Translations under genes and position numbers: made by a program
Part shown: positions 1 through 63,722 of the stretch, piece after piece
Layout: each line of letters begins with the position of its first letter
How positions within the stretch are numbered: position 1 is the first letter of the stretch
Notes under the pieces: model-generated
The model's input: the letters and a program-made list of their open reading frames with translations, nothing else
The model's database searches: none
What the model was told of the DNA's origin: nothing
Source of the DNA: Mustelus asterias
Lineage: Eukaryota
DNA length: 64,000 nt
Direction: 5' to 3'
Assembly: GCF_964213995.1 (NCBI RefSeq)
Contig: NC_135821.1
Coordinates: 4,712,001-4,776,000 of the forward strand

Positions 1-1764
1 GATGTGATCTCCAAGCTTCTTGATCATCTTCACTTGTTCATCCAAGTAGTGAGTCTCCAGGAAGTCACAAAGCTGGAAAGGAAAGACAGGAGAAATTAAT
101 GTGTCAAGTCAAACATGGAAGATCTTTTCCAGGAGAGAGAGTTACCCCCATCTTGCACTGGGTGGATGGGGAAAGTATTACAACTGGGTAATTTTAGTTA
201 ATGCATACAAGTAGCAAGTCACAATTCCATTAAACTGGGAGTGAGTGCCTCAAGGAACAGAGGTCTCAGAATCCAAAAGCCTTGGTAACATTTCAGTGAC
301 ACAGATCCAAGGTTTGGATGGCCTCTGCTTATAAACTCAGCAACTGAAAGCTCAGACTGAAGGACAGATTCCAGTATCAACATCCAACTTACATGAGGGT
401 CGGTGTTCCCAGAGGAGAGTTTGTGCAGATCCAGCAGACTCTGGTTCACATTCTTCTCCATCTGCAGAGCTCTCTGCATGGCCTCCAGACCATTGCTCCA
501 CTCATCCTGCTCTGGCTTCTGAAAGGAGACAAAATAGATCTGGGTAGTGCCATGGGATGTTACCTTGGGAACCATTACATCAGTCCCTCAATTAAAGGTG
601 ACAGGGGTAGAATCAAAGCCCATTCTCTGCACCAGAGAGAATCAGCACAAAGTTTAAGCCAGTTTACAGCCCAGAACCCCATTTATTGTTGCTTTAGCCA
701 TTAGCTCAGGGTGATCCAAAGGTCAAAGCCACACCAACTCATCATGCACCCATTCTCAGGTCATGAGGAATGTAGGTAGTAGGAACCCAAGGATGCAATG
801 GGAAAATGAACTAAACTATTTAAAAATAATGTGGCATCAAGAGGACAGAATCCAACCTTGACATCCTCCAGGATGACTCTGCCTCCACGTTTATTCTGGA
901 ATTCCATCAGTTTCTCAGCGTGTTCCCGTTCCTCATGTGACTGCTCCTTGAAGAACTCAGCAAAGTGACGCAGGGCAACATCATCCCGGTCAAAGTAAGA
1001 GGACTGTGGGTAAAGAGTCAGAGCAGAGATTATCCATGGGCCACTTGGAATTTAGAACAACCATCACAGATCATTTCCTTACTCAGGAATGGGTTCAAGT
1101 TTAGCTTCAACCATCAACCCATGTTTAATCCAATAGTGGGACATTCTTTCCTTCTCCCCCACCATGGAGACTTTAAAAATCAATGCTTAAAGTAGAAAAA
1201 CTTCAATTTAATCCAATTCATTGCTCCTGGAATGATTTAACCTTGGGGGAAGGAAAGCTCAACACAACAGGATTTACCCATTTAGAATGGCAGAGGGAGG
1301 AGAACATTCATAAGTGGTCACCCAATTAGATTACTTCCATTCAAGTTGGATAATTCAATTAGATTCATGCAGCTCATGAATCCACCAAGGGGATAGATTC
1401 AGAGTTGCCCAGTCCACTCTGCAAAGAAAGATGAGTCTTCTGTTGGAAATTTAATGGAGCCTGTTTCAGATGGAAACTCTTCAGAATCAGGTCAAGTTAT
1501 TACAGACAGGGAGCAGTCTGTTAACAAGATCTTGTCCCTCAATAACATTTATCAGCAACAACTATCATTTAAAGCCAAATTCATTGGCAAAGATATTGCA
1601 CCTGCTCAGAGCACAACCAGACCATTATTTTAAATTTAAACCCCAAAAATCACAAAGCTCACCATGGAGAGATAAACATAGGAGGAATAGAGCTCCAGGT
1701 TGATCTGCTTGTTAACAGCATCCTCACAGTCCTTGTGGTAGTTCTGACACACTTGGGAAGCCAT
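1..1764 (-). CDS. Ferritin heavy-chain-like (H/M-type) gene, copy 1; 3' end truncated by the window edge
   Basis: Exons 1764-1663 ([34 protein letters not shown]), 1003-857 ([40 protein letters not shown]), 518-393 ([15 protein letters not shown]) and 72-<1 ([24 protein letters not shown]..). GT-AG junctions and exon sizes match the vertebrate ferritin gene structure. Confidence 0.95.
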
Positions 1765-1903
1765 TGTACTCTCACTGGAAGAAAACTCAACCAAGCTGAG
1801 CTGTTTAGCCACAAGCTCTTGTATTTATACCACTGGGACATCCTGCATTCAAACTGGGAATGACATCACCAATGATGATTGACAACCCCTGATAGCCAAT
1901 CAG
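1765..1903 (-). promoter_or_regulatory. Proximal promoter and short 5'UTR of copy 1: TATAAA (1829-1824), TGACATCA CRE/ATF-like site, CCAAT boxes
   Basis: GGTATAAATAC about 60 bp above the ATG; the same block is conserved in all nine copies. Confidence 0.7.
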
Positions 1904-2217
1904 GGTGAACGGTGGGAAGCTTTTCCCCAGGTCGGTGGTGACGTTCATGAGGGGTCATAGGTTCAAGGTGAAGGGGGGGAGGTTTAACACAGATATCAGA
2001 AGGACATATTTTACACAGAGGGTGGTGGGGGCCTGGAATGCGCTGCCAGGCAAGGTGGTGGAGGCGGACACACTGGGAACGTTTAAGACTTATCTAGACA
2101 GCCATATGAACGGAGTGGGAATAGAGGGATACAAAAGAATGGTCTAGTTTGGACCAGGGAGCGGCACGGGCGTGGAGGGCCGAAGGGCCTGTTCCTGTGC
2201 TGTATTGTTCTTTGTTT
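1903..2217 (+). mobile_element. CR1 LINE 3' fragment inserted in the copy 1 promoter
   Basis: Encodes ..[21 protein letters not shown].. (CR1 ORF2 C-terminus), followed by the GGGCCGAAGGGCC 3'UTR and a (TTCTTTG)-type tail; absent from the paralogous promoters. Confidence 0.88.
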
Positions 2218-60509: not shown

Positions 60510-63500
60510 TTAGTCACTCTCCCCCAGGGCGAGTCTGTCAAACAAGTACTCTCCCATGCCATTCTCAGGAGCTCCCAGTCTCTTCAGGTTGGTGATGTGA
60601 TCTCCAAGCTTCTTGATCATCTTCACTTGTTCATCCAAGTAGTGAGTCTCCAGGAAGTCACACAGCTGGAAAAGAAAATGTTACAAATCAACATCTGCCA
60701 GGAACTTTCCCCCACAAGAGATTGTATTTGCACTGGGAGGTTAGCAATGTACTACAATGGAACTGGATACCTCATGGTCCAGTAAGCTTGAGATTCTAGC
60801 ATCACATTTAGTTCCAGTTGTCCAATTAGCTCACCTCCCTATCCTCAATCATCTCTTCCCCCAAAGCCCAGGACAGATACATGTGGAGCATTTGAACCGA
60901 TCAAAGGGAGGGTTGGTGCCAAGGAAACAACTTACATGGGGATCGCTGTGTCCAGAGGAGAGTTTGTGCAGATCCAGCAGACTCTGGTTCACATTCTTCT
61001 CCATCTGCAGAGCTCTCTGCATGGCCTCCAGACCATTGCTCCACTCATCCTGCTCTGGCTTCTGAAGCAGAAAGGCAGACACTTCACTCATAATGGAGTC
61101 AAACAGGAGGAAGTTCAAGGCAACACAAAAAGCAGTCCATGTTACTAGCAACCAATGCACCACAAGAAAATCTTTGCATCACACCCTGGTATTGCCAGAG
61201 ATGCACATATCCATCAAATCCAACCTGGACATCCTCCAGGATGATTCTGCCTCCACGTTTATTCTGGAATTCCATCAGTTTCTCAGTGTGTTCCTGTTCC
61301 TCATGTGACTGCTCCTTGAAGAACTCAGCAAAGTGACTCAGGGCAACATCATCCCGGTCAAAGTAACAGAACTGAGGAAAGAGAATTTTACAAAATCTAT
61401 CAATTGTTTCCCCAACTCAAATCTACTAACTATTAATCCTGAACTGCTAGTTTCTGTACAAAACAAAGCCAAAAGATCCAGCAAACAAAATCAGGAAGCT
61501 TGGAATTTTGATTCATGCCTATAGTTTATAATTAAGACAGCCCACCGACACATCTACTCAGGACACCAAGGAAATTTGGCATGTCAAGTACGACTCACCA
61601 ACTTTTACAGATGCGCCATAGAAAACATCATTTCCAGATGCATCAGTTTAGTATGGCTCCTGCTCAGACCAAAACTGCAAAGGGTTGAGAATGTAACCCA
61701 GTCCATCACACAAACCATCCATTGACTCCATCTACACTTCCTGCTGCCTCTGAAAAGCAGCCAGCATAATTAAGGACTCCCTCCCATCTTCTCCCATTGG
61801 GAAGGTACAAAAGTTTGAGATTATATACCAACCAACTACTGAATGGATCTACCTTACATTAACCTGATCTTTCTACACCCTAGTTATGACTAACACGAGA
61901 TTCTACACCCCCTCCTCCCCCATGTACTCTGAATACATATGTAAACTAATATGAAAATAAATGAAATTAATTTGATGCATCGTATTAAGGCTCCACCTGT
62001 TCTAAGGTGGACAGAACATTCTTCAGAAACATTGCTGGATAACATTCTCTCCAGTGTTCGGGACAACATTGGCCCCTCAACAAATAGCACCAAATTAGAC
62101 AGTTTAATTACTGATGCGCTTCTCAATCACGAGGCTAGATGCTCGGTAAATAAAAGGCTTTTATTTACTGTAATGAAGCAGCCAATAATTATATACACTA
62201 TCCCAGACTGAAGGGGTCCCGGCCAGAGCAGGGACTTTTATACCTCTCCCAGGAGGCGGAGCCCGACTGGGATGTACCACAACACTACAGTACAAAGGTG
62301 TAACAACCCCACCCTAACCCCAACAGCAACAAGTAGCACAACCCAACAGTAACATATGTACATCCTTGTAGTACTGGCCAGACCCTGGCTCAGTACTATC
62401 CAGTGGGAACCAACGATGGTTCACCACAATTACTTCATAGGAGAGCTGGCAATTAGTGAAAACTTCCTCAATTAGAAAAAGAACAAATTTATTCCTCATT
62501 CAATAGCCCAGGCAACCTGAGGAAGTGAAAGACACATCAATGCAAAAGCCACCCATGAAATGGACCAAGCAGCATCCTTCATTCTAGTTTCACTGCAGAT
62601 CAAGAATTCTGGGCACCCCGAACACCACCAGGGCTTTTCTGGTCATTAATTGATAGTTACAAGCAGGGACTTGCTAACATTTCCCTAGCTACAGTCACCC
62701 GCATTGAAGCTGAACCTTGTCTAATGTTAACAAGCACCTGACCAGCTTTGTGCTCAGTTCCAAACTCAGGCAGCAGCTGAACTAGTTTCATCCATTAAAC
62801 CCCTCAATGGAGAGCAGCTGTCCTCTTTTTTTAGGTCAAACCAAACCAAGTAAACAAACTCAGATTAAATCAGGACAAAGTAAAAAGGGGCAGCTCCCCA
62901 AAAAGGGGGGGGGGGGGGGGGGGGGGGGGCGGAACAGCCCGAACAGAAATCAAAGTACAAAGGAAACTTAAAAACATCAAATTAAAATGTGATTATTGGG
63001 GTCAATAATGCACCCCAACCCCTGCGGTGCCCAGCAGGCACAAGGAGCAGCCCATTCACTCAACATCACCCTGGATTACACACTGGAGACACTCACCCCC
63101 AGGGGTGAAAGTAAAGAGAAGTTTTAGTCACAAGTAGGCTGACATTAACACTGCAATGAAGTTACTGTGAAAATCCCCTAGTCACCACACTCCAGCACCT
63201 GTTCGGGTACACCGAGGGAGAATTTAGCACAGCCAATGCACCCATCATCTTTCAGACTGTGGGAGGGAACCAGAGCACCCGGGGAAACCCACACAGACAC
63301 GGGGAGAACGTGCAGACTCCTCACAGACAGTGACCCAAGCCAGGAATCAAACCCAGGTCCCTGGTACTGAGGCAGCAGTACTAACCACTGTGCCATTAAT
63401 ATCATTTATAAAGTCACTTCATTCAACTGGAGAAGATCCCACATTTCAGACCACAGTGACAAGGAACACAAAGCTCACCATGGAGAGGTAAATATAGGAG

Positions 63501-63580
63501 GAATAGAGCTCCAGGTTGATCTGCTTGTTAACAGCATCCTCACAATCCTTGTGGTAGTTCTGACACACTTGGGAAGCCAT
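60510..63580 (-). CDS. Ferritin heavy-chain-like gene, copy 9 (176 aa; R60Q, A63T, K83Q, GHSDPH, ends ..ALGESD)
   Basis: Exons 63580-63479, 61371-61225, 61061-60936, 60665-60510 (TAA). Open frame. AATAAA at 60392-60387. Confidence 0.95.
62112..62428 (-). mobile_element. Solo LTR (317 bp), same family as 39028-39305, in intron 1 of copy 9
   Basis: Minus strand starts TGTGGTGAACCAT and ends GCATCA; 5-bp TSD attac (62107-62111 / 62429-62433). Confidence 0.85.
62819..63044 (-). mobile_element. Short Tx1/L1-clade 3' end with an expanded G-run
   Basis: Nearly identical to 47045-47240; flanking gagcagc duplication. Confidence 0.82.
63115..63395 (-). mobile_element. V-domain SINE in intron 1 of copy 9
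   Basis: tRNA head plus V-domain. Confidence 0.8.
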
Positions 63581-63722
63581 CTCACTGAGGATAAGAGTCA
63601 CACAACAACAAGCTGACCTCTGCCCTCACAAGCTCTTGTATTTATACCACTGGGACATCCTACATTCAAACTGGGAATGACATCACCAATGATGATTGAC
63701 AACCCCTGACAGCCAATCAGGA
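63581..63722 (-). promoter_or_regulatory. Proximal promoter of copy 9 (TATAAA 63646-63641)
   Basis: Conserved block, interrupted distally by a Tx1-like insertion. Confidence 0.68.

Follow-up and report, generated by a model that had tools for sequence, protein, structure and literature searches.

The window, i.e. the whole 64-kb stretch of DNA analysed here, contains nine ferritin genes placed head to tail on the minus strand, with a mean spacing of 7.7 kb and ATGs at positions 1764, 8577, 18581, 26048, 32350, 40238, 48512, 54743 and 63580 (copies 1 to 9, respectively). All consist of four exons of 102, 147, 126 and 147-156 nt, with open frames in nine of nine cases and GT-AG junctions at 27 of 27 introns. 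Copies 2-5 encode predicted proteins of 173 aa and copies 6-9 of 176 aa; copy 1 is incomplete, the start of the window cutting inside its exon 4. A TATAAATA TATA box starts 65-66 nt upstream of the ATG in all nine copies, and an AATAAA is present 63-117 nt past the stop in the eight complete ones. The preliminary description of the locus, which had reported nine such genes with open frames, regular junctions, polyA signals and a TATA box close above the ATG, implying a short leader, was accurate in these respects. No ferritin fragment beyond the 36 exons and no flanking non-ferritin gene were found in the window, and scans of it for tRNAs and tandem repeats gave nothing informative. Processed ferritin pseudogenes were considered and rejected, as the genes bear introns and open frames, and are neither intronless nor decayed.

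Introns fall into four groups, A to D, mostly unalignable from one group to another. Group A is represented by copy 1 (1..1829; exons 1663-1764, 857-1003, 393-518 and 1-72; TATA at 1829), whose leader is unlike those of copies 2-9. Group B introns are found in copy 2 (5603..8643; exons 8476-8577, 6981-7127, 6407-6532 and 5679-5825; TATA at 8643), which has a 3′ flank of its own type with the AATAAA 70 nt past the stop, in copy 3 (15604..18647; exons 18480-18581, 16885-17031, 16296-16421 and 15673-15819; TATA at 18647), in copy 4 (22708..26114; exons 25947-26048, 24206-24352, 23364-23489 and 22794-22940; TATA at 26114), where an extra, out-of-frame ATG lies 5 nt upstream of the start, and in copy 5 (28950..32416; exons 32249-32350, 30193-30339, 29607-29732 and 29033-29179; TATA at 32416). 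Despite its group B introns, copy 5 has an upstream flank 99-100% like that of copies 6-7, which belong to group C. This group comprises copy 6 (36579..40304; exons 40137-40238, 38469-38615, 37674-37799 and 36669-36824; TATA at 40304), copy 7 (45136..48578; exons 48411-48512, 46400-46546, 45605-45730 and 45224-45379; TATA at 48578) and copy 8 (51847..54809; exons 54642-54743, 53313-53459, 52312-52437 and 51937-52092; TATA at 54809). Copy 9, the most diverged (60387..63646; exons 63479-63580, 61225-61371, 60936-61061 and 60510-60665; TATA at 63646), forms group D.

Homogeneity between copies is limited to the exons and ~130 nt of promoter and leader; it falls within 10-20 nt of the splice sites and right after the stop, and the 3′ flanks, of four unrelated types, are not homogenised. 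Homogenisation restricted in this way is a feature absent from the preliminary description. Synonymous distances (pS) range from 0.009 to 0.097, with a mean of 0.041 over 36 copy pairs; in 51 of 108 intron pairs nothing can be aligned, and the pieces that do align average 14% mismatch. Fourfold sites differed in 13/539 comparisons within intron groups and 74/1486 between them, these being sums over pairs that are not independent. For the four group-B pairs tested, 0-1 of ~60 fourfold sites differed, versus 13-14% for the introns (p 0.0002-0.0017), and in two of three group-C pairs fourfold sites showed no deficit relative to the introns (p 0.45 and 0.49). Neutral sites in some tracts are far more alike than the neutral DNA flanking them, between groups and in five of the seven within-group pairs tested, but not in the other two. 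Coding variants form a mosaic across intron lineages: the pattern at nine of 11 informative sites is incompatible with the intron grouping, and all four gametes occur at 15 of 36 two-state site pairs. Variable sites are enriched at exon edges (18/140 versus 20/376, p 0.007), an effect that is gone when copy 9 is left out (p 0.36). The conflict of the informative sites with the intron groups points to gene conversion restricted to exons and promoter, which likely keeps the copies alike.

The shared promoter and leader block, ~130-140 nt long, is present above all nine ATGs (in copy 8, for example, at 54744..54885 on the minus strand). It contains reverse CCAAT boxes near -137 and -110, a CRE-like TGATGTCA at -105 and the TATA box at -66, from the position of which a leader of ~35 nt is predicted. 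Mean identity of the 80-nt core promoter reaches 96% across the nine copies, and copies 2-9, drawn from three intron groups, are 92-100% identical over the final 40 nt of the leader. A pyrimidine run followed by AG is found at -6 in seven of the nine copies and at -12 in copy 1; copy 3, one of the seven, has a G, not a C, before the AG. No ARE, MRE or HRE consensus was detected within 260 nt of any ATG.

The earlier proposal that no canonical IRE lies near the start was confirmed by Rfam scan, pattern scan and folding. With Rfam, no family reached its gathering score in the window; the 20 matches at E≤10 fell far short of these thresholds, most of them lying on a TA repeat, and none belonged to an IRE family. 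The pattern scan (C-bulge, 5-bp stem, CAGUGN) returned nothing within 400 nt above the nine ATGs or in the eight 3′ ends, and no CAGUGN element with a C-bulge and five of five pairs exists on the minus strand of the window. In all six copies tried, out of nine, the leader with the first codons formed no more stable fold than shuffled sequences did (z +0.6 to +2.1). A CAGTGA hexamer does lie 7 nt before the ATG in six of the nine copies, and 13 nt before it in copy 1. It was rejected as a vestigial IRE, having no C-bulge, only two of five stem pairs (four of five in copy 1) and no stable hairpin.

A search of sequencing runs with copy 8 gave 22 runs, none listed as RNA: 18, with shares of 0.06-0.07, were guessed to be RNA, and four had larger shares. 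Contigs were compared from five of the 18 (X1, X2, X3, X5 and X6) and from one of the four (X19); they come from other organisms. In four of four guessed-RNA runs, contigs skip at least one predicted intron exactly, and all three predicted introns of copy 8 are skipped in this way. Exons of the array are 97-100% identical to these contigs, while leaders differ. Array-type exon-1 contigs, from three of three guessed-RNA runs, end 25, 27 and 41 nt above the ATG, and the letters shown of them contain no IRE; this is weakly suggestive, as the end of a contig does not mark a transcript start.

Compared with the residues listed in the Atlantic salmon study (PMC4117605), the ferroxidase residues E24, E58, E59, H62, E104 and Q138 are present in all nine predicted proteins, as are the nucleation glutamates E54 and E61, position 57 being His. 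The predicted proteins have in this respect the M-type pattern, a ferroxidase centre together with L-type nucleation glutamates, although residues alone do not fix orthology. No signal peptide is evident at the N-terminus. With a pN/pS of 0.43 among copies and single-copy substitutions such as C6R, F52V, D113V, H133L and Y134C, some copies may be drifting.

Large tandem ferritin clusters have already been published in sharks, so the expansion itself is not new. The Greenland and white sharks have 155 and 179 FTL/FTH1-like copies, in three common clusters, the largest of which is stated, from Greenland shark RNA-seq, to be expressed specifically in the ovary (Sahm et al. 2024, bioRxiv 10.1101/2024.09.09.611499). 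In the Greenland shark, FTH1b numbers 59 copies of four exons each, split between two tandem clusters, ferritin copy numbers being raised in sharks generally; some of these copies are transcribed in fin and blood, so that the ovary is not the sole site of expression (Yang et al. 2026, PMC13214024). Such clusters share with the present array a tandem arrangement of mostly full-length ferritin genes and, by implication for FTH1b, four exons, and, judged by this resemblance, the array is likely a stretch of the FTH1b-type tandem array reported in sharks. The dosage-amplified family of intact genes lacking an IRE near the start, put forward in the preliminary description, was borne out by the sequence, though not as a discovery (bioRxiv 10.1101/2024.09.09.611499; PMC13214024). 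Its baseline, the single mammalian FTH1 and FTL loci, was wrong as well, for tandem arrays exist in fish too (PMC10746142). The main texts of the Greenland shark papers do not mention IRE, UTR, conversion or concerted evolution, nor does the PNAS supplement (five files) mention iron-responsive or gene conversion. Among the papers searched, which take in few subscription journals, none described shark ferritins as having lost the IRE or undergone conversion, although this does not prove such an account unpublished. The lack of an IRE and the homogeneity pattern are two testable properties not found in the Greenland shark papers or the literature searched.

Several IRE-less ferritin messages are tied to gonad or yolk. 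Mammalian FTMT and FTHL17 are known as IRE-less, intronless retrogenes, unlike the genes of the array, which bear introns, lie in tandem, have intact ferroxidase sites and show no evident signal peptide. Schistosome ferritin mRNAs are also reported to be IRE-less. The Atlantic salmon H1, H2 and M1-M3 genes resemble the array in their four exons and three introns, in the same-numbered ferroxidase residues and, for the M chains, in E54 and E61; in contrast, a 5′ IRE is present in five of five salmon H/M isoforms and in none of the nine copies (PMC4117605). The fthl27 gene of the hadal snailfish, present in 14 tandem copies, is strongly expressed in the majority of tissues and reduces ROS when transfected into cells (PMC10746142). 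Like the present array, these are tandem heavy-like copies read as a gain in dosage, but the introns of the present array show old lineages, homogeneity being found only in exons and promoter. Conversion is known to keep high-dosage paralogs alike in ribosomal, histone and Y-ampliconic genes (Fawcett and Innan 2011, PMC3924837), and the array resembles these dosage-selected concerted families. It is the reverse of the opsin case, where introns are homogenised and exons diverge (PMC3924837).

We infer that the array copies would be released from IRP control and produced in bulk. Our preferred reading, to which we give even chances, is that of an IRE-less, conversion-homogenised FTH1b-type shark array that, free of IRP repression, would make catalytically competent ferritin in large amounts, the ovary being the likely site. 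Old duplicates with drifted introns would still exchange DNA where they are alike; exons and promoter would be held in step by conversion, and further copies would arise from unequal crossovers within these blocks, as copy 5 may illustrate with its group B introns and group C upstream flank. The CCAAT/CRE-like/TATA promoter would then produce a ~35-nt leader that IRP cannot bind, leaving output to be set by copy number and transcription. The product could stock or buffer iron in oocytes, as suggested by RNA-seq of another shark and by fish ovary data: a ferritin subunit was the main transcript in a subtracted library of coho salmon early oocytes (PMC2262088). The oocyte role guessed at in the preliminary description agrees with the published RNA-seq statement, which concerns the Greenland shark cluster only (bioRxiv 10.1101/2024.09.09.611499).

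Other readings were weighed against this one. Exons 95-99% identical could suggest that the assembly repeated one locus or its haplotypes, the artefact that the preliminary description had named as fatal to its claim. The chance of this is negligible, being ruled out by intron divergence: within groups introns vary in length and are 4-15% divergent, between groups most cannot be aligned, and spacers differ, with different insertions. A more serious contender, though an unlikely one, is the same array without ongoing conversion, a birth-and-death family of old duplicates that stay alike because the genome evolves slowly and purifying selection acts on the protein, codon usage and promoter. Shark Ks is low, 0.02-0.37 between two shark species (PMC13214024), exon pieces in the contigs of other organisms differ from copy 8 by only 0/133, 4/265 and 4/227 nt, and two of three group-C pairs lack a fourfold deficit. 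Slow evolution and selection thus explain part of the homogeneity. Yet fourfold sites are only 5% different between copies whose introns are unalignable, variants are shared in mosaic fashion at nine of the 11 informative sites, 15 of the 36 site pairs are mutually inconsistent, and the leader ends, alike in copies 2-9, contrast with the contig leaders of other organisms, which failed to align. A recombination-prone array in which the majority of copies are carried along silently or neutrally, and look intact merely through conversion, is very improbable. The pN/pS value, the single-copy substitutions, the upstream out-of-frame ATG of copy 4 and the transcription of only a portion of Greenland shark copies in two tissues (PMC13214024) could be so explained, but no copy has a stop, a frameshift or a broken splice, TATA or ferroxidase site, and AATAAA is kept in eight of eight copies, within four unrelated 3′ flank types that conversion left unhomogenised.

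As to regulation, an IRE might still control the genes, if transcripts began further upstream or carried a non-coding first exon joined to the AG that immediately precedes the ATG. The pyrimidine run and AG of the leader could act as acceptor, and two contigs from other organisms cease to follow the sequence of the window at the -2 AG. We nevertheless give this little chance, as the TATA and CCAAT boxes stay at a fixed distance even where DNA further upstream is unrelated, no Rfam IRE occurs anywhere in the 64 kb nor a fully paired, C-bulged CAGUGN on the minus strand, and one other-organism contig retains a leader resembling, by eye, the genomic one. Slightly less improbable, but still doubtful, is the view that the array serves not as a maternal iron store but as an antioxidant or ferroptosis-control reserve with broad expression. 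This role has been proposed for Greenland shark FTH1b, with its fin and blood transcripts (PMC13214024), and would fit the broad expression and ROS effect of snailfish fthl27 (PMC10746142). Against it, the largest cluster, common to the white shark, is stated to be ovary-specific (bioRxiv 10.1101/2024.09.09.611499), the ferroptosis signal, from two sampled tissues, is driven largely by the expansion itself (PMC13214024), and ARE, MRE and HRE consensus are missing near the ATGs.

Returning to the bulk-ferritin reading, a broader and more tentative one, which we hold possible but would not favour, is that of an ancient maternal array run by sharks like an rDNA or histone locus. Its tens to hundreds of copies, with introns but having lost the IRE, would have a single short-leader promoter in common, would be held identical by conversion acting only on exons and core promoter, and would load oocytes regardless of iron. 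On this reading, an expansion read as a longevity or ferroptosis trait would be an egg-provisioning system common to sharks. Published readings of the shark expansion, an ovary-specific cluster on the one hand and ferroptosis and longevity on the other, do not treat regulation. If copies have no IRE, output would be independent of iron, a behaviour more in keeping with provisioning than with iron sensing. The array also offers a clean natural case of homogeneity found only in exons and core promoter, next to introns no longer alignable. Such exon-limited homogeneity makes old duplicates seem recent in coding-sequence trees, and can bias the dating of expansions.

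When the window was compared with itself by BLAST, exon by exon, each of the four ferritin exons appeared in exactly nine places, always in order and on the minus strand; a translated search with single exons detected no ferritin sequence in the window beyond these 36 exons. Exon lengths are 102, 147, 126 and then 147 or 156 nt in the nine copies, numbered here by rising window position; copy 1 is incomplete and continues past the window start. A TATA box (TATAAATA) begins 65-66 nt upstream of the ATG in each of the nine copies, and AATAAA is found 63-117 nt past the stop in the 8 complete ones. 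With all 9 frames open and 27 GT-AG introns out of 27, the preliminary description of nine intact head-to-tail ferritin genes, each with its own TATA promoter and, when complete, a polyA signal, was borne out. Coding identity among copies is 95.0-98.9% (36 pairs). Residues E24, Y31, E58, E59, H62, E104 and Q138 are kept in 9 of 9 copies, likewise E54 and E61; with the exception of Y31, the same residues under the same numbers appear in the ferroxidase/nucleation list for salmon chains in the consulted part of PMC4117605. On this residue and exon pattern, we named the nine predicted genes ferritins. In copy 4, an out-of-frame ATG precedes the start codon by 5 nt (26049-26055, minus strand) and may lower the translation of this copy.

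By their introns, the copies fall into four groups, A to D (copy 1; copies 2-5; copies 6-8; copy 9). Inside groups, introns align with 4-15% mismatch, and 51 of the 108 intron pairs have no alignable stretch. Exons are far more homogeneous, with a synonymous distance of 0.009-0.097 (mean 0.041) and a pN of 0.018. Over the first 120 nt upstream of the ATG, the 10-nt bins of copies 2-9 have a mean identity of 91-100%. Mean identity across all nine copies is 96% for the 80-nt core promoter; copy 1 shares this core promoter, its last 40 nt before the ATG being its own. Identity drops to background within 10-20 nt of each splice site, and directly past the stop as well. The restriction of this homogeneity to exons and core promoter had been overlooked in the preliminary description. 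That the array is an assembly artefact is excluded by the intron divergence among copies.

Exon variants are distributed as a mosaic across intron groups: codons 35-37, the first three of exon 2, read S/L/F, S/A/C and Y/F, and codon 77 V/L/I, most of the protein being invariant. Fourfold sites differ at 74/1486 positions between intron groups and at 13/539 within them (pair sums). Compared with the intron rate in 7 of the 9 within-group pairs, they were below it in 4/4 group B and 1/3 group C pairs. Of 11 informative coding sites, nine contradict the intron grouping, and the four-gamete test was failed by 15 of 36 two-state site pairs. Conversion is probably the homogenising force. Against this reading, the enrichment of variants at exon edges disappears once copy 9 is dropped, and exon sequences are highly similar between organisms too. 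Copy 5 has group B introns, yet for 260 nt past the core promoter its upstream flank is 99-100% identical to the flanks of copies 6 and 7 (32351-33023, compared to 40239-40899 and to the sequence above copy 7); judged from the alignment, this flank would be a recent conversion or crossover junction. Copy 2 combines group B introns with a 3′ flank of its own. Both junctions lie inside homogenised blocks, as expected from unequal crossover there.

The claim that the leader, the predicted ∼35-nt 5′ UTR, holds no canonical IRE (C-bulge, 5-bp stem, CAGUGN loop) was confirmed, for the predicted start site, by Rfam, pattern scan and folding. At gathering score, Rfam gave zero matches in the window, and at E<=10 the IRE family was absent among the 20 matches. 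On the window minus strand, the pattern scan found no CAGUGN loop with a C-bulge and 5/5 stem pairs; two had 4/5 pairs, outside leaders and 3′ ends, and the sole fully paired CAGAGN element lies within a copy 7 intron. In all 6 copies examined, of the 9, folding of the leader with the first codons did not surpass that of shuffled sequences. A CAGTGA hexamer directly upstream of the ATG was rejected as an IRE, having neither C-bulge nor stem. The ferritins FTMT and FTHL17 are likewise not known to carry an IRE, and schistosome ferritin mRNAs are reportedly IRE-less too. An IRE is present in each of the five H and M isoforms of salmon (PMC4117605, consulted part), which makes its absence here unusual for a fish ferritin. 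The leader ends at its 3′ side, given the predicted start site, with a pyrimidine run followed by AG, which could be an acceptor for an upstream exon. Translation from the predicted ∼35-nt leader is likely independent of IRP (for the IRE/IRP mechanism, see PMC11719527, in part).

A search of public runs with copy 8 returned 22 rows, namely 18 guessed-RNA runs and 4 larger holders from a single organism. The 18 runs, whose shares are small, come under seven other organism labels, including a fish metagenome. In 4/4 guessed-RNA runs compared with copy 8, contigs span the exons and leave out one or more predicted introns at the exact coordinates (introns of 219, 875 and 1182 nt, all CT..AC-ended in plus-strand reading). 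Mismatches to copy 8 in long exon pieces number 0/133, 4/265 and 4/227 nt. Close relatives with the same splicing therefore occur in other organisms, the RNA status of the runs being a guess and the contigs being distinct from the window's own copies. For exon 1, one array-type contig per run (3/3 guessed-RNA runs) ends 25, 27 or 41 nt upstream of the ATG and has leader letters differing from those of the window; no IRE was seen in the listed leader letters of these three contigs, which cannot prove a start. Among the matches listed, a contig of a more distant paralog (one run) has 461 nt ahead of the match. The one larger holder compared covers intron and promoter, hence is DNA-like, and possibly represents the source of the window itself. 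Depth is 12-16 for its long single-locus contigs and 262 for a 76-nt contig matching the promoter exactly; exon 1 also occurs in several contigs between other flanks. These observations hint at some 20 copies of the promoter type and at further diverged copies beyond the window, depth not being a copy number.

Tandem ferritin amplification has precedents. Yang et al. (PMC13214024), in the part consulted, describe 59 copies of FTH1b arranged in two tandem clusters, elevated copy numbers in sharks in general and some expression in fin and blood, and put forward a ferroptosis hypothesis; the hadal snailfish has 14 fthl27 copies, mostly tandem (PMC10746142, in part). From our comparison, the window genes probably belong to the shark FTH1b array. 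A shark origin of the window is suggested by the fit to these published arrays and by its SINE-like repeats. Ferritin transcripts are plentiful in zebrafish follicles (PMC1488847) and in early oocytes of coho (PMC2262088), as excerpted, and ovary provisioning appears a somewhat likely role for the array. For conversion under selection for dosage, see the review PMC3924837 (in part). IRE, UTR or conversion terms were absent from the searched portions of Yang et al., including five supplement files, and of Sahm et al. (bioRxiv 10.1101/2024.09.09.611499), and in a literature of incomplete coverage we found no published account of the missing IRE or of the conversion pattern in shark ferritins. 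Because the steps of the whole reading are correlated, we give FTH1b-array membership, conversion, IRP-independent translation and ovary provisioning jointly about an even chance. More tentatively, a maternal IRE-less shark array run like an rDNA or histone locus might load oocytes regardless of iron status, an idea we hold to be less likely than not.

The 3′ flanks of copies 2-9 form four unrelated 3′ UTR types (2; 3-5; 6-8; 9), each with its own AATAAA, which would permit copy-specific expression counts. Between copies 2 and 3 lies a young LINE-type retrotransposon (11322-14042, minus strand), whose 906-codon stop-to-stop frame has endonuclease (PF03372/PF14529) and reverse transcriptase (PF00078, E 1e-33) domains. 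A 398-codon frame (43171-44367, minus strand) gave a partial reverse transcriptase match under the Pfam cut-off, and related DNA is present at 36913-37537 and 11241-12146. The hairpin-like inverted repeat at 9986-10085, with weak microRNA-family matches far under gathering scores, is probably a small transposon remnant. tRNA-derived SINE-like repeats at 9421-9609, 3620-3800 and 19520-19900 presumably resemble shark-genome elements.
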